Source of the DNA: Escherichia phage megetsur
Direction: 5' to 3' (one strand)
Length of the DNA stretch: 42,132 nt
Sequence record: MN850608.1
In this document: piece after piece, positions 3,179 to 42,132 of the stretch
Layout of the letters: each line of letters starts with the position of its first letter
Numbering within the stretch: position 1 is the stretch's first letter
The notes under the pieces: generated by a model
Databases searched by the model: none
What the model was told of the DNA's origin: nothing
Seen by the model: only the letters and a program-made list of their open reading frames with translations
Program-made: the position numbers and the translations under genes

Positions 3179-3234
3179 TAAGCTACAGCCTCTGCTTGCG
3201 GGGGCTGTGTCATTATCAAACGAGCGAGGTCACT

Positions 3235-4485: not shown

Positions 4486-4639
4486 GCTGGCCGTAATCAA
4501 ATCACCCACCGGATTATTCTGGTGGGTTGTTAATAAACTCCAGCCGAATAAACCTTTGGCTGTACGTGATACAAAGTGGGAGGCCGAGAGTAAACTCGAA
4601 GACCTGCAACGTATAGTGCGTAATGTTATTCCGGCGTAG
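4469..4639 (+). CDS. hypothetical small basic protein (56 aa)
   Basis: ATG 4469 with GGAG 7 nt upstream. Confidence 0.35.
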   Translation: MQRDTKLAVIKSPTGLFWWVVNKLQPNKPLAVRDTKWEAESKLEDLQRIVRNVIPA

Positions 4640-4675
4640 TCATCTACTCATGCCTGTTATTATTTAGCAGGCATT

Positions 4676-4696
4676 ATGAAGGTGTCTATATTGGCC
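4676..4696 (+). promoter_or_regulatory. copy A of a conserved ATGAArGTGTCTATA element; candidate phage-RNAP promoter at the early/middle boundary
   Basis: ATGAAGGTGTCTATATTGG shares 15 of 16 positions with the element at 18857; sits directly after hairpin 4650-4676 and before the first middle gene. Confidence 0.35.
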
Positions 4697-4711
4697 AACG
4701 TGAGGTGAACT

Positions 4712-4915
4712 ATGTTCAAAGTAATATTGTTGTTCCTGCTTCTGGTTATTATTTGGGGAGCATTGTGGGTAGGTCTTGCATCACTGGTGCTTATCCCTGC
4801 TGTCGGTGGGTCAGCCACTTCAACACTGGGCACGCTGCTCGGTATGCTGGTGGGCTGGGGTCTGATGCAGTTGAGCCTGAGTGTAGGCCAGAGCCGGAGG
4901 TGGATTAAATGGTGA
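4712..4915 (+). CDS. small hydrophobic membrane protein (67 aa), holin-like topology
   Basis: ATG 4712 with GAGGTG upstream; two hydrophobic segments and a basic C-terminus RRWIKW. Confidence 0.5.
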   Translation: MFKVILLFLLLVIIWGALWVGLASLVLIPAVGGSATSTLGTLLGMLVGWGLMQLSLSVGQSRRWIKW

Positions 4916-5349
4916 AGCCAAAGTATAAAGTCGGGGATGAAATCGTAGGCGACGATGGCACTGGCACCCGGTCGGGTAAGCTGGGTATCATCGCGTGGGT
5001 TAACCCTGACCGCCGAGCGTGGGAACGTAGCGGGGAGACTCGTTACATCGTGAGCTGGATTGGTGAGCGCCTCAATGCGCAGCCGGATATCAGCCACTAC
5101 AAATCTGATTGGCTGGAGGACAACACCAGTCTGGTCAGCACGCCAGCAGAGAAGCGTGGTCGGTTCATGTGCTTGGTCGAAGGCAGTAATGCGCCGCCGA
5201 AGGTTGAGCACATCACTGAGCGCGAGGCGCGTGACGAAGCTGAACGTTTGGCAGAGCGGAACGGAGGTACTGTCCGTGTGCTGCAAGTTGTAGCCAGCGT
5301 GAAGATGAAGAAGAAGATTCAGTACATACCGGACTGGGATAACGAATGA
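4909..5349 (+). CDS. hypothetical protein (146 aa)
   Basis: ATG 4909 with GGAGG upstream. Confidence 0.5.
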   Translation: MVKPKYKVGDEIVGDDGTGTRSGKLGIIAWVNPDRRAWERSGETRYIVSWIGERLNAQPDISHYKSDWLEDNTSLVSTPAEKRGRFMCLVEGSNAPPKVEHITEREARDEAERLAERNGGTVRVLQVVASVKMKKKIQYIPDWDNE

Positions 5350-6056
5350 TGAAATCAGTGAGCAACGACGAGTGGCCGGAGCTGGCGAAGCGTCTGCCTG
5401 TAGGACAAAAGCGAAGGACGTTTCACAGTTGCTCGCGGTCATTCAACAAGACCAACTTCGAGTACGGTCGTGCACCGGATTACATCTGGTGCAAGTGCCA
5501 CCGCTGCGGGTACAGCCGCAAGCATGACTTAACCCATGCTGTGTACGTGCCGCCAGCGGAGGTGCAAGTGAAGGTGCCAACGGATGTGGTGCCTATCACT
5601 GAGGTGATTGCCAAGCAGCCGCGCTTGCTGCTGCCAGTGCTGGAGCGGGAGAACCTGATGCCGCACCTGTCTATCCTGACTGCAAGCCCAACGTATGGCA
5701 GGCTGTATCTGCCGGACGACACGGGCAGCTACTGTGGTCTGGACTACACGGGCAGGCAGTTCATCCCGTGGCGCTCGCCGCACAAGCACAGCTTGGCAAT
5801 GAAGGTCAGCCCTCGCGGTAATGCTGAGACCAACTGCCTCTGGATTTATGGTGAGGTGGACGAGTATCTCCAGCAGGTACGCGACGGCGGCAACTGCGCG
5901 TTCGTTCCCAACGTGGACGACTCAACGTTGCAGGCGCTGGTCAGTGTGACGCTGGCGTATGGATACAACCTCGTGGTTATCTGCCACCACCCAAGTGCTC
6001 AGCGCATACGCCGGGAGCTGCGTGTCGTTGGGCGTGTGCAAATCGTAGGAGAGTGA
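5346..6056 (+). CDS. putative DNA primase-like zinc-binding protein
   Basis: Cys/His cluster (HSCSRSF...CKCHRCG) and position immediately upstream of the helicase, as in phiKMV-like genomes; no TOPRIM motif verified. Confidence 0.35.
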   Translation: MMKSVSNDEWPELAKRLPVGQKRRTFHSCSRSFNKTNFEYGRAPDYIWCKCHRCGYSRKHDLTHAVYVPPAEVQVKVPTDVVPITEVIAKQPRLLLPVLERENLMPHLSILTASPTYGRLYLPDDTGSYCGLDYTGRQFIPWRSPHKHSLAMKVSPRGNAETNCLWIYGEVDEYLQQVRDGGNCAFVPNVDDSTLQALVSVTLAYGYNLVVICHHPSAQRIRRELRVVGRVQIVGE

Positions 6057-6057
6057 T

Positions 6058-7323
6058 GTGCTTGACAAGCTGTTGTTAACGGTGATGCGCGAGCGCGGGA
6101 AGTATAACTCCCTGCGACACGCCATCCCGGAAGATACCATGAGCCAGACCACGGGCTATATGCTGCGTGCTTACGGCTCATACTTTGACGCGTTCCCGGA
6201 CAGTGACTTCATTGACATTGAGACACTGGGTACGCACGTTCGTTTAAAGACAGGCAGCACGCCTGAACAGATGGCGGCCTTTGATTCCCTGTGTGCTCAG
6301 CTCAAAGAGTATCAGCCCACGAAGGAACAGAAGGAAGGCATCCTTGACCAGCTCGTAGAGTTGGACACCGCTGGCCGTGCGAACCTGCTGATGCAGAGGT
6401 ACGACAATGGTGAAGAACTGGATATTATCTATGAGCTTGGCCGTCTGGCTGAGGGCGCACGCCGCAGTCGGGGCCAATCATCAGTTACCGATTACGTCGA
6501 TGACGATGTGGTTGACATTATTAATCGCACTGATGATGACCAAGGTTTTAAGTTCGGTCTCATGTGTCTGCAAGATAGCGTACGCGTACTGCTTCCCGGC
6601 GACTCCGTTGCAATCGCTGCCCGACCTGACAGTGGGAAGACCAGCTTCATCGCGTTTAACCTTACGCGAATGGCGGCGACAGCGGCGAAGCTGTATCCGG
6701 GCAGACCAATCCTGTGGTTCAACAACGAAGGGCAGGGCATCAACATCATCCCGCGCATCTATCAGGCGGCGCTCAACTGTACGCTCCCGGAACTGAAAGA
6801 GCTGGGTGAGGACAGGAGCAAGCTGCACGCTGCGTATGCCAAGGCACTGGGTGCGCCAGCCAATGTGATTCGTGTGAAGGATATGCACGGCGCGACGCTG
6901 GCAAAAGCTGAGCAGGTTATCGAAGCGATGAACCCGTGCATCGTGGTGTGGGATATGCTTGCCAACTTCAAGCTGTCTGTGTCTGACCCGTCGAGCAACA
7001 AGGCGAGTCAGGTTGAGCAGCTATGGCAGGAGGTACGTGAGCTGGCAGTGCGACACAACTTCGTGTCACTGGCTACGGTTCAGGTATCAGCCGATGGTGC
7101 CGACGATATGTTCCCGGCGCTTGACGCATTGAAGGATTCCAAGACTGGTATCCAAGGGGCGACTGATGTTATCGTGATGCTCGGCAGCGTGGATGACCCA
7201 TCGCTGGCGGCGCGGCGCGGTGTCAGTACGCCGAAGAACAAACGCCAGATTGCTGGGCGTCCAAGCAACGTGCGGTCACAGGTACACTTCTTTGCTGACC
7301 GCTGCCAATATGAGGATATGTAA
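6058..7323 (+). CDS. replicative DNA helicase (DnaB / T7 gp4 helicase-domain family)
   Basis: Walker A AARPDSGKTSF; 421 aa; GTG start with AGGAGAG upstream. Confidence 0.8.
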   Translation: MLDKLLLTVMRERGKYNSLRHAIPEDTMSQTTGYMLRAYGSYFDAFPDSDFIDIETLGTHVRLKTGSTPEQMAAFDSLCAQLKEYQPTKEQKEGILDQLVELDTAGRANLLMQRYDNGEELDIIYELGRLAEGARRSRGQSSVTDYVDDDVVDIINRTDDDQGFKFGLMCLQDSVRVLLPGDSVAIAARPDSGKTSFIAFNLTRMAATAAKLYPGRPILWFNNEGQGINIIPRIYQAALNCTLPELKELGEDRSKLHAAYAKALGAPANVIRVKDMHGATLAKAEQVIEAMNPCIVVWDMLANFKLSVSDPSSNKASQVEQLWQEVRELAVRHNFVSLATVQVSADGADDMFPALDALKDSKTGIQGATDVIVMLGSVDDPSLAARRGVSTPKNKRQIAGRPSNVRSQVHFFADRCQYEDM

Positions 7324-15330: not shown

Positions 15331-15901
15331 GAAAGGTCAGAAGTTTATCTTAGACCCGGCACGCAACTGGGGTACTGGCACGCTGCTGAGCGACATTGCT
15401 GAGCAAGGTATCATCCTGACGTACGACGAACCGTACGATGTGCCGAATGACAGCCGCGATTACTACACCTGCGTGAAGGATGGCAAGACCCACACTCTGG
15501 TACTGGAGCCATTCGAGGTGAAAGAAGTTGAGACTGCATTCATCCCGGTTGACCCGTACGACCCGGCCAGTGATGTTGAGGTGGCCGTGGCCAAGAGTGC
15601 CGGGCCGGGAGGTATGAAGTTCGACGGCGGCAAGCCCCGCATGTCACTGCTGTTCGATGGCTGCCCGAATGCACTGGAGGCTGTAGCCAGCGTGCTCACC
15701 TTCGGCGCTGAGAAGTATGCAGCCCACTCGTGGCAGACTGTGCCGGAAGGTGAGGAACGCTACAAGTCAGCACTGCTCCGTCACCTGACGGCGGTGGGTA
15801 AGGGTGAGGAACTGGATAGCGAATCCAACCTGCACCATCTGGCGCACGCTGCGTGCAATGCGCTGTTCATTCTGGAACTCGAATTAAGGAAACGCAAATG
15901 A
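15323..15901 (+). CDS. hypothetical protein; C-terminal all-alpha domain possibly nucleotide pyrophosphohydrolase-like
   Basis: ATG 15323 with GGAGG 7 nt upstream; the domain assignment is from memory and tentative. Confidence 0.4.
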   Translation: MGKKGQKFILDPARNWGTGTLLSDIAEQGIILTYDEPYDVPNDSRDYYTCVKDGKTHTLVLEPFEVKEVETAFIPVDPYDPASDVEVAVAKSAGPGGMKFDGGKPRMSLLFDGCPNALEAVASVLTFGAEKYAAHSWQTVPEGEERYKSALLRHLTAVGKGEELDSESNLHHLAHAACNALFILELELRKRK

Positions 15902-16104
15902 GTGTTTTACTTTGGATTGTAGCTGTGGTATGGTTTGCCCTGTTCTCTGTTGTCTGGCTGCGTGTGACCAGTACAACAAGACACACGTTGACAGGTCTGG
16001 TGCAGCAGGATTTATCCTGTGGGTATTCTTGGCTGTCATCCCTGCTATTCTGTTTGCCTGTCTTGCGTAGGAGATTGTATGAGTCGTTATCAAAGAGCCA
16101 TTGA
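15898..16104 (+). CDS. small membrane protein (68 aa), two hydrophobic segments
   Basis: ATG 15898 with AAGGA upstream; hydrophobic LLWIVAVVWFALFSVVWL and SWLSSLLFCLPVL, then RRRL. Confidence 0.4.
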   Translation: MSVLLWIVAVVWFALFSVVWLRVTSTTRHTLTGLVQQDLSCGYSWLSSLLFCLPVLRRRLYESLSKSH

Positions 16105-16395: not shown

Positions 16396-18828
16396 GTGGA
16401 TTTACTTGCAGAGCAGATTCGACTTGAAGAAGAAGCGCGAGCCAGACACCGCGAGGGCTGGCTGGATAATATCAAAGAGGCGATGGCCAGTGGCCGCGCC
16501 GGGTCGGTGCCGTTGCTCCAGCGTATGATGGTTGAGGCTTATCCTCTGGTCGAAGCTGCGATGCAAGAAACCCTGAGCGAAACGACCCGTGGATATGGTG
16601 CGCAGTACCGGACGTACATGCGTGAGATTGGCACCAAAGCGTGTGCCTCTCTCGCACTGAGCATGGCGGTGTCCGGTGCTGCGTCGGAGCAGGCGGTACT
16701 GAGTCTGCTCAAGAGCATGGGCAAGGCACTGATGGCTGAGGTGGTGTATCTCCGGGCGAAGCAGACCGGGCCACAGCAGGCGGCGTACATGGAGCGCGTT
16801 AAGCAGGACGTGAAGAAGTCTCGCTCGAAGTCAGCGAACCACGTCTACAACAAAGCGCGTGCGTCGGCGGCGAACGTTGGGGTAGAGATTGATGTGCTGC
16901 CGCAGCGTGCGCTGATTACCATTGGCAAGCTGATGATGAAGTGCGTCGAGCCAACTGGTCTGGTGTCCACGATTCGCGTCGGCGGCAACCAGCGCCAGCG
17001 CGGTACGGCACACTTCGCACTGCACGAAGATGTGCTGGCTACGATGAACGACTGGCTGGACATGCCGCGTGCTGATGGCATGTGCTGCCCACCGCTGATT
17101 ATCCCACCGAAGCAGATTGCCCCGAACGGTCGCAGCGGTATGTGGCATTCCGATGGGCAGGCAGCGATGTACCGGGTCATGAGTCGCATGAACCACAAAG
17201 GGTATCGTGCATTGAACGTTGACCCGACCCCCGTTATAGAGCCGTGTATGATGCTCAGCAGCGTTCCGTACCGAGTTAACCCAATGGTACTGGAGTTCCT
17301 GCGAACGAACCGTACAGGCGTTATGGGGCTGCCTGTGCCACCCCGTGAGCCTACACTTCCGTTCACCATCCCCGCTGGTGTGAGCTTTGCACAGTACATC
17401 AGCAAGTTCCCACCAGAGATGCAGCAGCAGATGGATGCCGAAGCTCACGAGTACAAGGTGAAGACTCGCTTGTATTACAATGAGTTGCGTAAGTTCACGT
17501 CGCAGATGCTGGCGTTGAATGGTGCAGTCAAAGAGGCAGACAGGTATGCGCAGTACGATAGGATTTATCTCCCGACTTACGCCGATACGCGGGGCCGAAT
17601 TTATTATTCTTCGACCCTTAACCCTCAGTCTATCGACGCGGTGCGAGCGCTGCTTGAGCTTGCGGAACCAGTGGCTCTCGGAACTGAGGGGCTGTTCTGG
17701 CTCAAGGTTCATGTTGCGAATTGTTTCGGATATGACGCAACAGACTTCGACGACCGGGCGGCGTGGACGGACAAGACACTCCCCCGACTACGTGAGGCGT
17801 GCCGTCTTCCAGAGGCATTTGATTCGTTCTGGTCAGAAGCCGATAGCCCTATCAGCGCGTGGGCTGCCTCTGTTGAACTCATTCGCGCTATCGACTCAGG
17901 AAGTCCTGAGACTTATCCCTGCCGAGTGGTTACGCAATGGGACGCTACCTGTTCAGGATTACAGCACCTCAGTGCGATGCTACGAGATGAAGTTGGCGGT
18001 GCTGCTGTCAATCTTATCAATAGCGTGGGAAGAAAAGCAGACATATATCTCAAGACGGCAGCAGCGGCGATGCAGGCTCTTGAAGATAGTGAGGCGCAGT
18101 CACCGACGCAGATGGGTACGTGGCTTGTTTCAATCGGCATTGTCCGGGCGATGGCTAAGAAGCCAGTGATGACCTACGTGTACGGGGCAACCCGGCACGG
18201 TATGGTGGACTACTACTGCCTGTATCTGCGAGAGAACCGGGTCAAGCTGCCGGACGGCAAGAGCCTGCTGGAGTGTGCGCAGTTCATCGCAGAGTTCATG
18301 TGGAATGCAATCCCTCGCGTTGTGCCGAAGGCGGCAGAGCTGATGGCATGGTTGCAGGCTATCGCGGTTGAGGCGGCAGCCAACGGCGAGTACGTGGAAA
18401 TCATTGCACCATCAGGGTTGCGGGTGGTTAACCTGTATCAAGCCAGCAAGGAGACGATGCTCAACAACATCAACCTCATGGGTATCCACAGCATTAAGCT
18501 GCGCGAGTATCTGGACAAGCCGGACGGTAGGAAGTGTGCCGCTGCGATTGCTCCGAATTTCGTACACGCCATGGATGCCAGCCACATGATGAAGGTGTTG
18601 TGGGAGATGTGGAATAACGGGGTGTACATGGTGTCCATCCACGACTCGTTCGGGGTGGCGGCTGCACATGCCGGGTTACTCCACAAGGTCATTCGTGAAA
18701 AGTTCGTACAGATGTATGAGCAACATGACCCAATTCAACAACTTGCTGTACGATACAATGCTGTTGCACCTGAACGGGGCAATCTGGATATCCAGCTTGT
18801 GAAACAATCAAGCAAGTTTTTCTGCTGA
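16396..18828 (+). CDS. single-subunit DNA-dependent RNA polymerase (T7-type)
   Basis: DATCSGLQHLSAMLRDEVGGAAVNL and HDSFGV match T7 RNAP catalytic motifs; GTG start with AAGGAG upstream. Confidence 0.95.
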   Translation: MDLLAEQIRLEEEARARHREGWLDNIKEAMASGRAGSVPLLQRMMVEAYPLVEAAMQETLSETTRGYGAQYRTYMREIGTKACASLALSMAVSGAASEQAVLSLLKSMGKALMAEVVYLRAKQTGPQQAAYMERVKQDVKKSRSKSANHVYNKARASAANVGVEIDVLPQRALITIGKLMMKCVEPTGLVSTIRVGGNQRQRGTAHFALHEDVLATMNDWLDMPRADGMCCPPLIIPPKQIAPNGRSGMWHSDGQAAMYRVMSRMNHKGYRALNVDPTPVIEPCMMLSSVPYRVNPMVLEFLRTNRTGVMGLPVPPREPTLPFTIPAGVSFAQYISKFPPEMQQQMDAEAHEYKVKTRLYYNELRKFTSQMLALNGAVKEADRYAQYDRIYLPTYADTRGRIYYSSTLNPQSIDAVRALLELAEPVALGTEGLFWLKVHVANCFGYDATDFDDRAAWTDKTLPRLREACRLPEAFDSFWSEADSPISAWAASVELIRAIDSGSPETYPCRVVTQWDATCSGLQHLSAMLRDEVGGAAVNLINSVGRKADIYLKTAAAAMQALEDSEAQSPTQMGTWLVSIGIVRAMAKKPVMTYVYGATRHGMVDYYCLYLRENRVKLPDGKSLLECAQFIAEFMWNAIPRVVPKAAELMAWLQAIAVEAAANGEYVEIIAPSGLRVVNLYQASKETMLNNINLMGIHSIKLREYLDKPDGRKCAAAIAPNFVHAMDASHMMKVLWEMWNNGVYMVSIHDSFGVAAAHAGLLHKVIREKFVQMYEQHDPIQQLAVRYNAVAPERGNLDIQLVKQSSKFFC

Positions 18829-18854: not shown

Positions 18855-18877
18855 AAATGAAAGTGTCTATAGTGATA
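18855..18877 (+). promoter_or_regulatory. copy B of the conserved element ATGAAAGTGTCTATAGTGATA; candidate phage-RNAP promoter ahead of the late genes
   Basis: Exact 21-mer also present inverted at 40536-40556; contains CTATAG; followed by palindrome GTGATA-GA-TATCAC (18872-18885). Confidence 0.4.
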
Positions 18878-19125: not shown

Positions 19126-19545
19126 ATGAAAGTGTCTACTATGGGAAATACATCACACACGACGATGCCACTCGACATTCGCCGTGCTGTGGCCGAAGGC
19201 ATTCAAGCTGAGCGGCCATGGTCAGACCTATCTCCCGATGTGATTGTTGACAGCATGTATGAGGCCACCGCCTCCGGTTGCGTTGACGTTTACATCACTG
19301 ACGATGACGGCAGCCTAATGGCTGTTGCTCACATCGGCAGGTTATTCGATATTCATGTGGGCGAGATGGTGGTCGTTATGGCCTCATACGTCTGGCCCCA
19401 GTACAGAAACCGTGGAGTGATGCGTGCCATCCTCCGTGTACTCAAAGACGTGGCCCGTTCAGCGGGTGTGCGTTGGTGCGGTTACTCCCATATGGTGCGG
19501 CCTTACGTTCAGGAGTACCGCTTCATTGATTTGGAGAAACCGTAA
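19126..19545 (+). CDS. hypothetical protein, possibly GNAT-like acetyltransferase
   Basis: Degenerate acetyl-CoA-binding-like motif WPQYRNRGVMRAIL; its first 15 nt repeat the promoter-like element. Confidence 0.35.
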   Translation: MKVSTMGNTSHTTMPLDIRRAVAEGIQAERPWSDLSPDVIVDSMYEATASGCVDVYITDDDGSLMAVAHIGRLFDIHVGEMVVVMASYVWPQYRNRGVMRAILRVLKDVARSAGVRWCGYSHMVRPYVQEYRFIDLEKP

Positions 19546-35909: not shown

Positions 35910-37669
35910 TGGATTTACAACGCCGCATGGTGATGGCAGGAATCGTTCGCGCTCACTACGAGAACAACTTCCCGCTATTCCTGCATGACTACTTCGCATG
36001 GCTGGGCTTTGACCTCACTGAAATGCAGCTCGACATTGGCCGCTACATGGCCGACAGGACGCTCAAGAACAAGTGCGTCATGGCGCAGCGTGGTGAGGCA
36101 AAGTCCACCATCGGTATTGCTCGCGCTCTGTACGAATTTGTGCAGATGCCGAACGCCACTGTCCTGCTTGTGTCCGGTTCCGACGACTATGCTGGTACGC
36201 TGTCGCACGCTATCGTGTCGGCTATCATGCAATGGGAACGTCTGGAATGGCTTAAGCCAGAGACTCGCGCTGGCGCACGTACGTCATTTACTGACGGCTT
36301 CGACGTGCATCACGCCTTCCGTATCCCTGACAAACAACCCTCTGTAAAAGCGGTCGGTATCTTCGGCCAGTTGCAGGGGAACCACGTATCGCTGTTGATT
36401 GCCGATGACGTGGAGACTACCAGTAACGGTAGCTCTCCTGCCAACCGCGCCCGTATCAACACCCTGACCAAAGAGTTCGCGGCTATCGCCAACGATGGTG
36501 CAGAGATTCTGTACCTCGGCACGCCACAGACTCAAGACTCCATCTACAACACGCTCCCACAGCGTGGCTTCGACGTTCGCATCTGGCCCGGTCGTTTCCC
36601 AACGGTTGAGGAAGAAGAACGCTACGGCGGCTGTCTGGCCCCGTGGATTAAGCAGAAGATGGAAGGCCACCCTGAGCTGCGTACCGGACACGGTATCCTT
36701 GGGAACCGTGGCGCACAGACTGACCCGCAACGCTACTCCGAAGAAAAGCAGTTGCAGAACGAACGAGACTACCAGCAGGCAGGCTTCCAGTTGCAGTTCA
36801 TGCTGGATACGTCGCTGTCGGATGCGCTCAAACAAACGTTACATCTCAAAGACTTAATCTTCTTCCACGGCTCAACGCAGTCTGCGCCGGAGGTTCTGCA
36901 TTGGTCGAACCACCCGCGCCATGCCGCCGAGCTGCCACTGGATTTCCCACTGGCTCGTGCTCAGCTATTCTTGGCTGCTGATTTCTCGGACACTTATGTA
37001 CCATTCGAAAATACCTCGGCGTTTCTTGACCCTGCTGGTGGTGGGTCGGACGAATCAGTTATCATTGCCACCGCTTCTGTCGGCCCGTTTATCCACGTCA
37101 TCGGTATGCACGTCTACCACGGCGGCCAGACGGAGGAAAACATCAAGGCGGCGGTAGAGTGGCTCGCTGAAACCGGGGTTAAACGGCTGGTCATTGAGGA
37201 TAACATGGGCCACGGCACCGTGACCAACATGTACCGAGGTGAGATTAAGCGCCAGAGCTTGACGATTGGCTGTGAAGGCGTGTATTCGTCCGGCCAGAAA
37301 GAGGTGCGTATCATCAACCGCCTTGGCCCAATCATGCAGCGCCACCGTGTAGTTGTACACTGGTGCGTTGTTGAAGAAGACCTGCGGCTGTGTCGCGGGA
37401 TGAACAACGGTGGTCGAGAGTTCAGCCTGTTCTGGCAGCTCCAGAACCTGACACAAGACCGTCAATCCATCCCACACGATGACCGTATCGAAACCCTATC
37501 TGCTGCCGTGTACCTGCACGCCGAGGTGCTACAGCAGGACGAACATGAAGAAGCTGCCAAGCGCGAGACGGCTGCCGCACGCGAGTTCCTTGCCAACCCT
37601 ATGGGTTACGATGACTCGAAGTGGCGTAGCCATAAACCTGTGCGCGGCACGCGACGGAGAATCAAATAA
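35909..37669 (+). CDS. terminase large subunit
   Basis: 586 aa, same length class as T7 gp19; P-loop-like RGEAKST near the N-terminus. Confidence 0.8.
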   Translation: MDLQRRMVMAGIVRAHYENNFPLFLHDYFAWLGFDLTEMQLDIGRYMADRTLKNKCVMAQRGEAKSTIGIARALYEFVQMPNATVLLVSGSDDYAGTLSHAIVSAIMQWERLEWLKPETRAGARTSFTDGFDVHHAFRIPDKQPSVKAVGIFGQLQGNHVSLLIADDVETTSNGSSPANRARINTLTKEFAAIANDGAEILYLGTPQTQDSIYNTLPQRGFDVRIWPGRFPTVEEEERYGGCLAPWIKQKMEGHPELRTGHGILGNRGAQTDPQRYSEEKQLQNERDYQQAGFQLQFMLDTSLSDALKQTLHLKDLIFFHGSTQSAPEVLHWSNHPRHAAELPLDFPLARAQLFLAADFSDTYVPFENTSAFLDPAGGGSDESVIIATASVGPFIHVIGMHVYHGGQTEENIKAAVEWLAETGVKRLVIEDNMGHGTVTNMYRGEIKRQSLTIGCEGVYSSGQKEVRIINRLGPIMQRHRVVVHWCVVEEDLRLCRGMNNGGREFSLFWQLQNLTQDRQSIPHDDRIETLSAAVYLHAEVLQQDEHEEAAKRETAAAREFLANPMGYDDSKWRSHKPVRGTRRRIK

Positions 37670-38349
37670 TGTCCATCATCACCATCACTGATGCACAGCG
37701 TTATGAGCTTGGCTATCGCTGCGGTATCGCAGCTAATGTGACTCAACGCTTTATCAATGATACCCGTATAGTGACGGCAGCTCAGGCTGCTGATATTGAA
37801 ACGGCTATCACCAATCTGGTGGCGGCACTTGAGGCGGCTGGCTATGCTGGTACGCCGGAAGGTTCCGCTCTGCTGGCTGACGGCGCTACTGTATCTGTGG
37901 TCAACTCCGCAGGTAACGATGCGCACAATGCCACAGCCAACGTTACTGGCACCACGCTGGATAACGTACAGCTCGTCCTGTCTACCGCAGCACTGGTAGA
38001 CCACACTGACTCAACTGAGATTCGTCGCTTCGACGGCTCTATCCTCGGCATCACCACTGCCACCGCCCGTGTAGCTGACGGCCTGCTGAGCAATGTGCGG
38101 CTCCCGGCTAACGCCGATGCAGTGCTTAACGGTTCGACTTACTCCATCCGTAACTCTGCTGGTGCTGACGCTCATAACGCCACTGCTCTCGTGGCAAGCA
38201 ACGGTGCCCTCACTGGCTTTAACCTCGCCGCTACTGTGGCCATGGTGGATAACGGTGATGCACTGGCTATCCCGGTAACTGGCACCTACGTGGATACTGT
38301 TACCTTCACTGTCGCTAGTGGTGTAATCACTGGCATCGCACTCTCTTAA
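37669..38349 (+). CDS. hypothetical Ser/Thr/Ala/Asn-rich protein with an internal ~50-aa tandem repeat
   Basis: Repeat units ...NSAGNDAHNATANVTG... and ...NSAGADAHNATALVAS...; TAATG overlap with the terminase stop. Confidence 0.5.
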   Translation: MSIITITDAQRYELGYRCGIAANVTQRFINDTRIVTAAQAADIETAITNLVAALEAAGYAGTPEGSALLADGATVSVVNSAGNDAHNATANVTGTTLDNVQLVLSTAALVDHTDSTEIRRFDGSILGITTATARVADGLLSNVRLPANADAVLNGSTYSIRNSAGADAHNATALVASNGALTGFNLAATVAMVDNGDALAIPVTGTYVDTVTFTVASGVITGIALS

Positions 38350-38565: not shown

Positions 38566-39054
38566 ATGAAACTGTCTCGGCTAATGGCCGGGGCAGTCCT
38601 ATCAGCGTCGCTGACTCTGACGGGCTGCTCCGCAACTAGCGCACTGTCTGCTGTAACTTCGGCTGTATCTCCCAATAAGCCGGAACTGACGGCTCAGGTA
38701 GGTGCAGAAAATACGAAGCAAGGTATCGGTGTGACTGCGAAACAGTCCGATGAAACCGAAGTCGGTGACGTATCTGGCAACGCGAAAGTGGATACCGCTA
38801 AGCAGGGTTCGAATGGCACATCCATCAAGGACGTATCAGGAGGCTCTGTAAACGCTTCTAAGCAGGGGTCGCAAATGACCCAAGGAAACGTACAGGCTCG
38901 CACGGTTATCGTCTCTCAGAGCGACCCACGCAGCCTCCTATGGGCTTTCGGCATGGGCCTTACGTGTATCCTTGGTTTAGTCATGTGGTTTGTACCATCT
39001 CCGTGGAAAAGGAAAGTGAAAGATGACGGAAGCAAAGAAGGAGCCATCTCCTAA
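38566..39054 (+). CDS. lipoprotein with C-terminal transmembrane anchor; candidate unimolecular spanin
   Basis: Signal peptide MKLSRLMAGAVLSASLTLTG|C with lipobox LTGC; C-terminal hydrophobic LLWAFGMGLTCILGLVMWFV followed by KRKVK. Confidence 0.5.
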   Translation: MKLSRLMAGAVLSASLTLTGCSATSALSAVTSAVSPNKPELTAQVGAENTKQGIGVTAKQSDETEVGDVSGNAKVDTAKQGSNGTSIKDVSGGSVNASKQGSQMTQGNVQARTVIVSQSDPRSLLWAFGMGLTCILGLVMWFVPSPWKRKVKDDGSKEGAIS

Positions 39055-39406
39055 CATCCACTCGCGTATGGGTGCAGTGGAGGCTCGTATGCAGACCGTA
39101 GAACTTCGACTTGACAAGCACGAGGTACAAATCGCCACTCTTGAAAAGGGCGATGCTGCAATGATTTCCAAGCTGGCTGAGAACGACCTCCGCTGGCAGA
39201 CGGTTCAACAGCAGCTCCTTGTGGTTGAGCAAATTCAGGACATTCAAAAGACTATGAGCCATATCGGTAAGTTGTTTACGGCGGCGGCTCACGCTGTCAA
39301 ATGGTGTCTCTTAACTGCATCCCTGTGTAGCGGTATCTACTTAGCAATCAAGGCTGGTGACTTAAGCTCACTGCAAGCCTTCATCACTACACTACTGGGG
39401 ATGTAA
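39023..39406 (+). CDS. coiled-coil protein with C-terminal hydrophobic segment; possible holin or lysis accessory protein
   Basis: 127 aa; C-terminal AVKWCLLTASLCSGIYLAI; sits between the lipoprotein and the endolysin. Confidence 0.4.
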   Translation: MTEAKKEPSPNIHSRMGAVEARMQTVELRLDKHEVQIATLEKGDAAMISKLAENDLRWQTVQQQLLVVEQIQDIQKTMSHIGKLFTAAAHAVKWCLLTASLCSGIYLAIKAGDLSSLQAFITTLLGM

Positions 39407-39942
39407 TGACTAACTTTGAAATCTGTATGCGGTTCACCGGGCTGGCAGAAGGTGGTTACACCAAGCTGCCCGGCGATACCGGAGGGGAAACGAATCATGG
39501 AATTAGCGACGCTCGTGATGGCAAACTGGATGGCAGAGCTTGTGGTGTCCCTACTGGGCTTGGCGGTACTATTTGCGTGCCTATCAAAGCCCTCACCAAA
39601 GCACAAGCCGAAGCAATCTATCGACGGGATTACTACGCCCCCATCCGAGGTGACGAGCTTCACCCTGCGATTGCATGTGCCGTGTTTGACTACGGTGTCA
39701 ACTCCGGTGTCTCCCGTGCGGCGAAAGCTCTACAGCGGGTATGCGGCGTTGCACAAGACGGGATTGTTGGCCCTGCTACCGTGGCAGCAGCCAAACGTCT
39801 GGAACCTCACTCCGCAGCAGCAGCCATCTGTGACCTTCGTATTGCGTTCCTAAAGGCTTCTACAGCCCCGACAGTGGTTCGCTATAGGGATGCCTTGGTT
39901 GCTCGTGCAAAACGCTGTAGCGCTTACTGTGCGACGCTGTAG
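39406..39942 (+). CDS. endolysin, glycoside hydrolase family 108-like catalytic domain with C-terminal peptidoglycan-binding domain
   Basis: LAEGGYTKLPGDTGGETNHGIS resembles the GH108 signature; C-terminal region resembles PG_binding_3; no N-terminal SAR/TM segment. Confidence 0.7.
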   Translation: MTNFEICMRFTGLAEGGYTKLPGDTGGETNHGISDARDGKLDGRACGVPTGLGGTICVPIKALTKAQAEAIYRRDYYAPIRGDELHPAIACAVFDYGVNSGVSRAAKALQRVCGVAQDGIVGPATVAAAKRLEPHSAAAAICDLRIAFLKASTAPTVVRYRDALVARAKRCSAYCATL

Positions 39943-40059: not shown

Positions 40060-40530
40060 GTGCGCGGATTAGCCTCGCGACGTGCGCGATATTTGCTCGC
40101 GTGCGCTGCGCGGCGCGTCAAGAGGATTGCCTGCGTGCGGTATAGCTCGTGCGTGTCGCGTTTCATCGTCTGCCGTGTGGCGTGCTGTGCGCTGTCCTGC
40201 TGGCTGTGCTGTGCGGTGCTGTCCTATGGGGACGCTCTGCGCTGGCTGTGCGGTGCTGCGTGCTGCGCTCGGTCGGGCGGGTATCTGTCTCTTTTGCTCG
40301 CAAGCTCTGCGCCGTGGTGGTGCTGTGTGGTGGCGGTGGTGCTGCCGTGGTGCTGTCCTGTCTGCTGGCCTACTGTCTGCGCCGCCAGCTCTGCGCGTCA
40401 TGCTCTGCTACTGTGTCACCTGTCCTACTGCGTTCACTGGCTGCCGCCTGTCATCCTGTCGGATTCCATCCGTTGCCGTTCCGCGCTCGCTTGTTTCGGC
40501 TGCGCCGCGCTCGCTCTGCGTATCTAGCGA
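40060..40530 (+). repeat. strand-skewed G/T-rich low-complexity tract (A-poor on + strand)
   Basis: Reiterated GCTGTG, GTGGTG, CTGCGC units; three + frames and one - frame stay open, which is composition-driven and not coding. Confidence 0.7.
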
Positions 40531-40535
40531 TACTA

Positions 40536-40556
40536 TATCACTATAGACACTTTCAT
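40536..40556 (-). promoter_or_regulatory. copy D (inverted) of the 21-bp element ATGAAAGTGTCTATAGTGATA
   Basis: Exact reverse complement of 18857-18877; flank similarity extends to about 50 bp; the + strand here reads TCACTATAG, identical to T7 promoter positions -8 to +1. Confidence 0.4.
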
Positions 40557-40562
40557 AATTAT

Positions 40563-40583
40563 CTAATGATTACAGTAACTTAT
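40563..40583 (+). repeat. 21-bp direct repeat, copy 1 (CTAATGATTACAGTAACTTAT)
   Basis: Exact second copy at 40642-40662; contains palindromic core TTACAGTAA. Confidence 0.85.
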
Positions 40584-40641
40584 GACCTATCTGATAACGG
40601 TATTCTATCCAGTGTTGTGATTATCCAATCAAACTTTAATC

Positions 40642-40662
40642 CTAATGATTACAGTAACTTAT
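40642..40662 (+). repeat. 21-bp direct repeat, copy 2
   Basis: Identical to 40563-40583, 79 bp downstream. Confidence 0.85.
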
Positions 40663-40683
40663 CACTTTTCTTGAAAATAATAC

Positions 40684-40713
40684 TTGCAAACTGTTTTGGT
40701 TATGTGCTGTAAT
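40684..40713 (+). promoter_or_regulatory. sigma70-type promoter P0 (TTGCAA-N18-TGcTGTAAT)
   Basis: -35 TTGCAA at 40684-40689, extended -10 TGCTGTAAT at 40705-40713. Confidence 0.5.
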
Positions 40714-42000: not shown

Positions 42001-42132
42001 ATGACTACTGCAATCAAATACACCAGCTTCAAAGACGCTGCCGCTCTGGACAAGGCTATTGAGTCTACCGTCAAGAAGGCGCACTCACTCCGTAACGAGA
42101 TTCAGAACGTTGCGGTCGGTATCATCCTGCAC
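42001..42132 (+). CDS. hypothetical early protein, 3'-truncated at the window edge
   Basis: ATG 42001 with AAGGGG upstream; frame open to the end of the window. Confidence 0.4.
   Translation, partial: MTTAIKYTSFKDAAALDKAIESTVKKAHSLRNEIQNVAVGIILH

Follow-up and report, generated by a model that had tools for sequence, protein, structure and literature searches.

A small membrane protein gene at the head of the replication operon

In this study, we analyzed a gene encoding a small membrane protein in Escherichia phage megetsur (sequence record MN850608.1). The window, i.e., the whole stretch of DNA that was analyzed, is 42,132 bp long and is the genome of a T7-like coliphage of the genus Bonnellvirus, which comprises J8-65-like phages of the Autographiviridae. 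The gene is located at 4712–4915 on the plus strand, runs from ATG to TGA, and encodes a 67-amino-acid (aa) protein (MFKVILLFLLLVIIWGALWVGLASLVLIPAVGGSATSTLGTLLGMLVGWGLMQLSLSVGQSRRWIKW). It is well supported as a genuine gene whose product is a genus-restricted, accessory inner-membrane protein, a tight hairpin of two transmembrane domains (TMDs) with both termini predicted to lie in the cytoplasm (N-in/C-in). A Shine–Dalgarno sequence, GAGGTGA (4702–4708, plus strand), is placed 3 nt before the ATG, and a purine-rich GGAG/GAGG element is kept in all relatives.

The 67-aa gene is the first cistron of the primase–helicase (DNA-replication, middle) operon. Its stop codon overlaps the ATG of the next gene (ATGGTGA), and it is translationally coupled in this way to the replication genes. 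The next gene (4909–5349, plus strand) encodes a 146-aa protein of unassigned function (phrog_28324) and is followed by the genes for primase (5346–6056, plus strand) and helicase (6058–7323, plus strand). In one relative (L021), the 146-aa gene is missing and the homolog of the 67-aa gene directly overlaps the primase start.

The two TMDs differ markedly in composition. TMD1 (approximately residues 4–28, nt 4721–4795) is strongly hydrophobic, with a Kyte–Doolittle 17-residue mean of up to 3.0 (VILLFLLLVIIW...), whereas TMD2 (approximately residues 36–58, nt 4817–4885) is less hydrophobic and rich in Gly, Ser, and Thr. They are joined by a predicted periplasmic turn (P29–S37). The C-terminal tail, GQSRRWIKW, is Trp-rich, interfacial, and basic (net charge +3); class II holins have a hydrophilic, highly charged cytoplasmic domain at this end, and the tail here is basic but only 9 residues long. 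An AlphaFold2 model based on a 12-sequence alignment is a helical hairpin of residues 2–31 and 33–61 (mean predicted local distance difference test score of 89.7), in which the turn between the helices takes up only about five residues. Because position 3 is Lys or Arg and the tail is basic, both termini are predicted to be cytoplasmic, and the turn would face the periplasm. The cytoplasmic parts comprise three N-terminal and approximately nine C-terminal residues, which leaves essentially no cytoplasmic domain. The turn of the relatives reads P29...G32-E33, and the window has G33 where most of them carry an acidic residue.

Conservation along each helix is periodic at 90–100 degrees, with one invariant face per helix and hypervariable remaining faces. 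The invariant faces are V4-F8-V12-W15/G16-W19-A23 in TMD1 and the stripe T36-G40-G44-G48-M52 (GxxxGxxxG) in TMD2. The simplest reading of this pattern is that the invariant faces would pack the hairpin or form a homotypic interface and that the outward faces diversify. The initial annotation had described a 67-aa open reading frame (ORF) with two hydrophobic segments and a basic C-terminus, arranged like a class II holin. Sequence, hydropathy, and the AlphaFold2 model agree on the segments and the tail, and the small size, two TMDs, and N-in/C-in topology of that holin class are all found here as predictions from hydropathy, charges, and the model.

A 66–67-aa "hypothetical protein" is encoded at the same place in every bonnellvirus record examined (mellemsur, aldrigsur, smaasur, J8-65, HHU8, LF82-23, Kc261, usur, glasur, Lidtsur, ROV85, and RZ4); in all, the gene is present at this place in 13 annotated relatives and in further, divergent contigs. 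A gap of approximately 70 nt always precedes it, and its overlap with the next gene is 7 nt in every case. Pairwise dN/dS values (ratios of nonsynonymous to synonymous divergence) of 0.13–0.5 (<0.5 in 44 pairwise comparisons), similar to those of the neighboring genes, indicate purifying selection. The most divergent member is a 60-aa protein (P0019), whose gene directly overlaps the primase start on a 42.7-kb contig.

The family is narrow. Two word-indexed searches of 5.8 billion proteins gave approximately 15 clusters, all from the same phage lineage, and an exhaustive profile search of 1.84 billion representatives gave four true matches, again all from this lineage; the other matches in these large searches were low-complexity matches to long repetitive proteins. 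A search of IMG/VR for more relatives added one near-identical locus, and the metagenome and genome collections searched contained no further relatives. Pfam, with the Imm family included, gave no match to Imm and no holin family at E ≤ 1, and PHROGs gave only phrog_25495 (unknown function; E = 0.018 over 20 residues) and no holin family. There was no match in NCBIfam or PADLOC, no similarity to known toxins or inhibitors in the databases searched, and Foldseek against viral structures returned only the protein's own family (the usur homolog). Pfam, PHROGs, NCBIfam, and the 1.84-billion profile search thus place the protein in no described holin family. Genes at the corresponding position upstream of the primase in other Autographiviridae (Dev-CD-23823 and Arno160) were considered as positional analogs and rejected, as they do not encode membrane proteins. 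As accessory membrane proteins of small size, a kind well known from phages, the 67-aa proteins make up a new family of narrow distribution.

The relationships of the gene differ from those of its surroundings. Nucleotide identity between smaasur and the window is 95% in the 67-aa gene and 52–67% in both flanks, and the reverse is seen in glasur (57% in the gene, 85–93% in both flanks) and LF82-23 (73% in the gene, 93–99% in both flanks). The dS of the 67-aa gene is likewise discordant with that of the neighboring genes. Judged from these comparisons, the gene is a single-gene mosaic cassette that passes between genomes, with the exchange confined precisely to the gene. Its boundaries lie in conserved sequence, i.e., the upstream promoter motif and ribosome-binding site on the left and the ...GWIKW-stop that overlaps the next start on the right. 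There are at least two deep allele types, type A in the window and type B in usur, glasur, Lidtsur, ROV85, and RZ4. Across five whole genomes, allele type had no partner in the spanin, the membrane protein of the lysis cassette (39023–39406, see below), or any other gene.

A second hypervariable cassette was observed at 37669–38349, where a 226-aa gene follows the large terminase. It shares approximately 50% identity with its counterparts in LF82-23, smaasur, glasur, and Lidtsur, and its neighbors share 93–100%. Its product matches phrog_9732 and has a virion-protein-like C-terminus.

Over the stretches tested, the window is 97–99% identical to Escherichia phage mellemsur and relatives. All of its genes are on the plus strand, in the order of early genes, primase and helicase through to RNA polymerase (16396–18828), structural genes, terminase, and lysis cassette (38566–39942). 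The 67-aa gene lies approximately 34 kb upstream of this cassette, in line with the initial statement that it is far from the lysis genes. One early gene, a homolog of the 175-aa protein of LF82-23, is split between the two ends of the window (42001–42132 joined to 3–380); therefore, the window is a circular permutation and does not begin and end at the physical genome ends.

The upstream hairpin and promoter motif

The 72-nt gap upstream of the 67-aa gene is filled by a hairpin and an 18-nt motif. The hairpin (ATGCCTGTTA / TAGCAGGCAT; 4650–4674, plus strand) has a 10-bp stem and a 5-nt loop and lies between the last early gene (stop at 4639) and the motif. Across 12 relatives, 99% of cells are paired and compensatory double changes occur at 6 of the 10 pairs, which none of 500 shuffles reached. 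It matches no Rfam family and is probably a terminator or processing structure of the early transcript; LIMEzero has an annotated terminator at the corresponding position (see below).

The motif, ATGAAGGTGTCTATATTG (4676–4693, plus strand), is of the type recognized by phage RNA polymerases, in a middle, class-II-like variant, and has four matches in the window, where chance alone would give 0.04. Its core, CTATAG, resembles promoters of the T7/SP6 class. A second copy, ATGAAAGTGTCTATAGTG (18857–18874, plus strand), is located downstream of the RNA polymerase gene, which ends at 18828, and before the first late gene (18939), and the 4676 motif differs from this late type at the presumed start base. 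A copy with three mismatches, ATGAAAGTGTCTACTATG (encoding MKVSTM), is found at 19126–19143 (plus strand) at the start of a 139-aa gene; it co-varies in glasur and smaasur and may be a promoter overlapping the start codon. A perfect late-type copy of ATGAAAGTGTCTATAGTG is present on the minus strand at 40539–40556, in the non-coding stretch that separates the endolysin gene from the early genes, and is oriented back toward the lysis genes. Its equivalents in LF82-23 (4917–4934) and glasur (4–21) vary together with the remaining copies. Downstream of this copy, the window has no convincing gene on the minus strand, and a role in replication priming or concatemer processing is conceivable.

All copies of the motif change together between phages, to GTGACT in glasur and to GTAACTGT in smaasur, which is what co-evolution with a single recognition protein would produce. 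Furthermore, the curated record of LIMEzero, a sister phage in the genus Waewaevirus, lists a "factor-independent terminator" and a "phage specific promoter" directly before the primase, and its only other "phage specific promoter" directly after the RNA polymerase gene, i.e., at the same two positions as the motif in the window. The LIMEzero junction resembles that of the window in its order of a 170-aa gene, a 53–56-aa gene, hairpin, phage promoter, primase, and helicase. However, the primase follows the promoter directly in LIMEzero, and the 67-aa and 146-aa genes are absent. The motif statistics, the concerted change, and the LIMEzero annotation together support the promoter-like element that the initial annotation had placed at 4676, directly upstream of the gene. 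This element is most probably a middle promoter for the phage RNA polymerase, and the gene sits behind it at the early/middle boundary as first described.

Two other interpretations of this region were rejected. A sigma-70 promoter can be read at 4664–4692 (TTAGCA-17-TATATT, 9/12), but such matches in the region number 12 against 10.7 expected, which is not above chance. Its hexamers are not kept in the clade of J8-65, smaasur, and Lidtsur, and the phage motif is preferred as the conserved feature. The ATG at 4676 was considered as a dual start or the beginning of an upstream ORF. In the window, it opens a 10-codon ORF closed by TGA; J8-65 and P0009 (J8-65-type) alone have it in frame with the gene, and type-B genomes have it out of frame. 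This ATG is simply the first three bases of the promoter motif.

Separately, the intergenic gaps of the early region (640–709, 992–1062, 1405–1469, 2005–2071, and 3179–3234) each contain a strong GC-rich hairpin (−17 to −30 kcal/mol), followed in most cases by a short palindrome, GGCAATNATGCC, and then a ribosome-binding site. The combination of hairpin and palindrome looks like a repeated early-transcript processing, terminator, or promoter module, and it resembles part of the annotated LIMEzero phage promoter (AAAGGCAATCAC).

The lysis cassette and the holin question

The lysis cassette of the window begins with a unimolecular spanin (u-spanin; 38566–39054, plus strand) that has the lipobox LTGC and a C-terminal TMD and matches phrog_1804 at 6.9e-36. 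The u-spanins of J8-65 and LIMEzero have been placed in the T1 gp11 family (PMC6139136). The cassette ends with an endolysin (39406–39942, plus strand) that combines a GH108 domain (PF05838 at 1.2e-21; phrog_315) with a peptidoglycan-binding domain. The N-terminus of this enzyme is hydrophilic. Because it is cytoplasmic and has no N-terminal signal-anchor, the endolysin needs a hole-forming holin. No holin is annotated in any Bonnellvirus genome checked, and it is therefore fair to ask whether the 67-aa protein is the holin.

The gene between spanin and endolysin (39023–39406, plus strand) encodes a tail-anchored membrane protein of 127 aa as called, or 105 aa from M23. In its structural model, one long helix (residues 2–88) or coiled coil ends in a TMD and is followed by a short C-terminal helix. 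The protein falls into 34 clusters, all in this lineage and none named, and LIMEzero ORF54 is 54% identical to it. Similarity to XhlA is weak, with a Pfam E-value of 0.12 (13 bits against a cut-off of 34.7). An hhalign comparison with SPP1 gp24.1 hits the same motif below significance (E = 1e-3, probability 21%). In drulisviruses, which have u-spanins of the same family, the order of the cassette is spanin, holin, and endolysin (PMC7291057; spanin family, PMC6139136), and the 39023–39406 protein accordingly sits in the holin slot. It is likely the unannotated holin of Bonnellvirus and LIMEzero and is a better holin candidate than the 67-aa protein.

The resemblance of the 67-aa protein to holins is nevertheless close. 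Class II holins and pinholins such as S68 of phage 21 are likewise proteins of approximately 65–70 aa with two TMDs in N-in/C-in topology, a positively charged tail, and a Gly zipper in TMD2. In contrast to S68, the TMD1 of the 67-aa protein is extremely hydrophobic and not of the signal-anchor-release (SAR) type, and the weak Gly/Ser/Thr-rich helix is TMD2. With a TMD1 mean of approximately 3.0 and a hydrophilic endolysin N-terminus, the window has neither the SAR TMD1 nor the SAR endolysin of pinholin systems. J8-65 and LIMEzero have been described as exceptions lacking the pinholin/SAR system (PMC6139136). The 67-aa gene also differs from class II holin and pinholin genes in lying outside the lysis cassette, behind a middle promoter, and in having a 9-residue tail and no conserved dual start. 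Class II holins are encoded near the endolysin and expressed late, whereas this gene is 34 kb away in the middle operon and the cassette slot is occupied by the 39023–39406 gene.

Comparison with relatives bears on the same question. LIMEzero has a homologous cassette of u-spanin, ORF54, and endolysin, and contains neither a homolog of the 67-aa protein nor any other small two-TMD protein. The plaque-forming isolate forsur (L011, 1501–1668) carries a single extra T in the gene (GCTGCTTGGGC, compared with GCTGCTGGGC in the relatives), and the resulting frameshift truncates the protein within TMD2, to 55 aa. Either the gene was inactivated recently in a phage that is still viable, or the extra T is a sequencing error. 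In addition, a stop/start overlap at the head of the replication operon would be unusual for a protein whose premature action has to be avoided, which argues against a role as the main holin. The 67-aa protein is therefore probably not the principal holin of the phage. The suggestion of a true holin in the initial annotation becomes less likely in view of the missing family match, the LIMEzero genome, the occupied slot, the forsur frameshift, and the coupling to replication genes, while the holin-like layout and the promoter reported there stand.

The initial annotation also pointed to a second, similar protein of 68 aa at 15898–16104 (plus strand). Its frame is indeed open in the window, but the proposed similarity was wrong: BLASTP gave no alignment with the 67-aa protein, and the hhalign probability was 0.2%. 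Compared with mellemsur and aldrigsur, the window has a 4-nt deletion at a short repeat (TGTC-type), and residues from approximately position 20 on are consequently out of frame. The ORF is a frameshifted copy of an unrelated gene for a small, 58–59-aa membrane or lipoprotein-like accessory protein. In mellemsur and aldrigsur, where the protein is intact, a hydrophobic segment at its N-terminus ends in a lipobox-like L[AS]AC and a TMD lies at its C-terminus; the gene is absent from LF82-23 and J8-65. It is thus another accessory small membrane protein gene and not a paralog of the 67-aa gene.

Two further features of the lysis region were noted. An ORF in the +2 frame inside the endolysin gene (39416–39853), open in five bonnellviruses, was considered as a possible outer-membrane spanin (o-spanin), as it encodes a hydrophobic segment and LFAC that resemble an o-spanin signal. 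Since the Cys is not conserved (LFVY and LFVF) and LIMEzero has a broken frame, this ORF is probably not a gene. Downstream of the endolysin, the non-coding region (40060–40712) is unusually rich in GC and in Cys and Arg codons, has long spurious ORFs in several frames, and holds short tandem repeats of 11–14 nt. It is probably part of the terminal-repeat and replication/packaging region.

Possible functions of the 67-aa protein

We tentatively propose that the 67-aa protein could be an exclusion or "gatekeeper" factor acting inside the membrane, like T4 Imm. Expression in mid-infection, near-total burial in the membrane, accessory distribution, possible loss in one isolate, and frequent cassette exchange all point to an accessory intramembrane factor. 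Under this proposal, the protein would accumulate in the inner membrane from mid-infection on and, with almost nothing exposed outside, would act within the bilayer. Its docking partners would be those parts of the ejection proteins of incoming phages that insert into the membrane or, alternatively, a host membrane protein, and the infected cell would thereby be protected from takeover or damage from outside. The small T4 membrane protein Imm binds a pore-forming ejection protein and in this way blocks translocation of the genome (bioRxiv 10.64898/2026.03.06.709160). Such binding within the membrane is the kind of intramembrane action that the anatomy of the 67-aa protein allows. Like T4 Imm and HK97 gp15, it is small, membrane-embedded, accessory, and apparently made before the late functions; a small inner-membrane protein of early or mid-infection is what its inferred topology and timing describe. 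Unlike T4 Imm, with which it shares no homology, it is shorter and has a far smaller exposed loop, and the counterpart of the tape-measure protein would be a podovirus ejectosome, with whose genes no co-variation was seen.

Several observations weigh against an exclusion function. No sequence or fold similarity to known exclusion proteins was found in Pfam, PHROGs, PADLOC, or Foldseek searches against viral structures. The periplasmic turn is tiny, and any contact with incoming phage proteins would have to be intramembrane. Allele type showed no co-variation with the ejectosome (internal-virion) proteins in the five whole genomes. The forsur frameshift could be a sequencing error, and a lysis gene could show such mosaicism as well. 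The layout fits a class II holin equally well, and the genus has so far yielded no canonical holin. Nevertheless, on the available sequence comparisons, an exclusion or anti-host membrane factor appears to fit the timing, accessory distribution, and mosaicism better than a true holin does.

A role in lysis timing accounts for some of the same features. The protein could be an antiholin, or the two-TMD half of a binary holin together with the 39023–39406 protein; in the binary case, the two-TMD part, synthesized early, would do no harm on its own, and the late partner would set the timing of the hole and release the GH108 endolysin. The class II holin layout with its two N-in/C-in TMDs and basic tail, the invariant GxxxGxxxG in a weakly hydrophobic TMD2, an endolysin without signal-anchor in a genus without an annotated holin, and the XhlA architecture of the 39023–39406 protein with its weak but concordant Pfam and hhalign signals are consistent with this. 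Phages SPP1 and PBSX need both a C-terminal-TMD protein and a two-TMD protein, and the SPP1 two-TMD gene is transcribed early (PMC6316719). As with gp26/gp24.1 of SPP1 and XhlB/XhlA of PBSX, a small two-TMD protein and a coiled-coil protein with a C-terminal TMD are encoded by one phage here. However, the two genes in the window are 34 kb apart, and the phage has a Gram-negative host and a u-spanin in its cassette. LIMEzero retains the cassette protein without any two-TMD partner, and forsur forms plaques with a frameshifted copy. The protein resembles neither SPP1 gp26/XhlB (hhalign probability 0.8%) nor any holin family, a conserved dual start is lacking, and the gene is coupled to replication genes rather than adjacent to lysis genes. 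Moreover, its alleles do not track those of the cassette protein, since HHU8, with 97% identity in the 67-aa gene and 82% in the cassette protein, breaks a weak trend with the lysis genes. Given the missing gp26 similarity and the LIMEzero cassette without a two-TMD partner, we consider an antiholin or binary-holin function unlikely. The more specific idea, that a Gram-negative phage has an SPP1/PBSX-style binary holin whose halves are divided between the middle and late operons, with the 67-aa protein as the mid-infection, harmless-alone half and the 39023–39406 protein completing it and timing the hole for the GH108 endolysin and the u-spanin, is less likely still, and we regard it as quite improbable; if true, it would explain the absence of an annotated holin in bonnellviruses.

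A host-directed membrane effector is doubtful to a similar degree as a lysis-timing protein. It could be a toxin or viroporin that partly depolarizes or permeabilizes the inner membrane, or an inhibitor of a host membrane protein (possibly a transporter, a protease, or a division or envelope-stress component), and would aid takeover during replication. Expression from mid-infection with the replication genes and an accessory distribution like that of many host-takeover genes are in keeping with such a role. So is the almost wholly membrane-embedded structure with a glycine-zipper face, a feature typical of channel-forming or tightly packing transmembrane helices. On the other hand, no homology to known toxins or inhibitors was found, and early depolarization would cost the phage energy. 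A conserved host target would also not obviously explain gene-precise exchange and an allele divergence of 46–50% in phages from the same E. coli K-12 host.

A membrane anchor that tethers the primase–helicase or replicating DNA, like phi29 p16.7 or p1, is very unlikely: although the gene is always the first cistron of the primase–helicase operon, always coupled to the next gene, and in L021 overlaps the primase start, there is virtually no cytoplasmic domain that could contact DNA or a replisome protein, LIMEzero lacks the gene despite a 57% identical primase, and its alleles move independently of the primase (smaasur identity of 93% in the 67-aa gene and 64% in the primase).

These results bear on lysis in the wider group. 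Bonnellviruses and LIMEzero have a u-spanin and a cytoplasmic endolysin with no recognized holin, and knowledge of the protein that opens the inner membrane would complete their lysis pathway. The holin candidates are now narrowed to the 39023–39406 protein as the primary one, which leaves the role of an accessory factor for the 67-aa protein. For the genus, the probable promoter of the phage polymerase has also been defined, and it co-evolves at every site. The swapping of a single-gene cassette between otherwise divergent genomes suits genes of phage–phage or phage–host conflict. If the 67-aa protein does act in exclusion, the T7 supergroup would contribute a very small exclusion factor that lies almost purely within the membrane.

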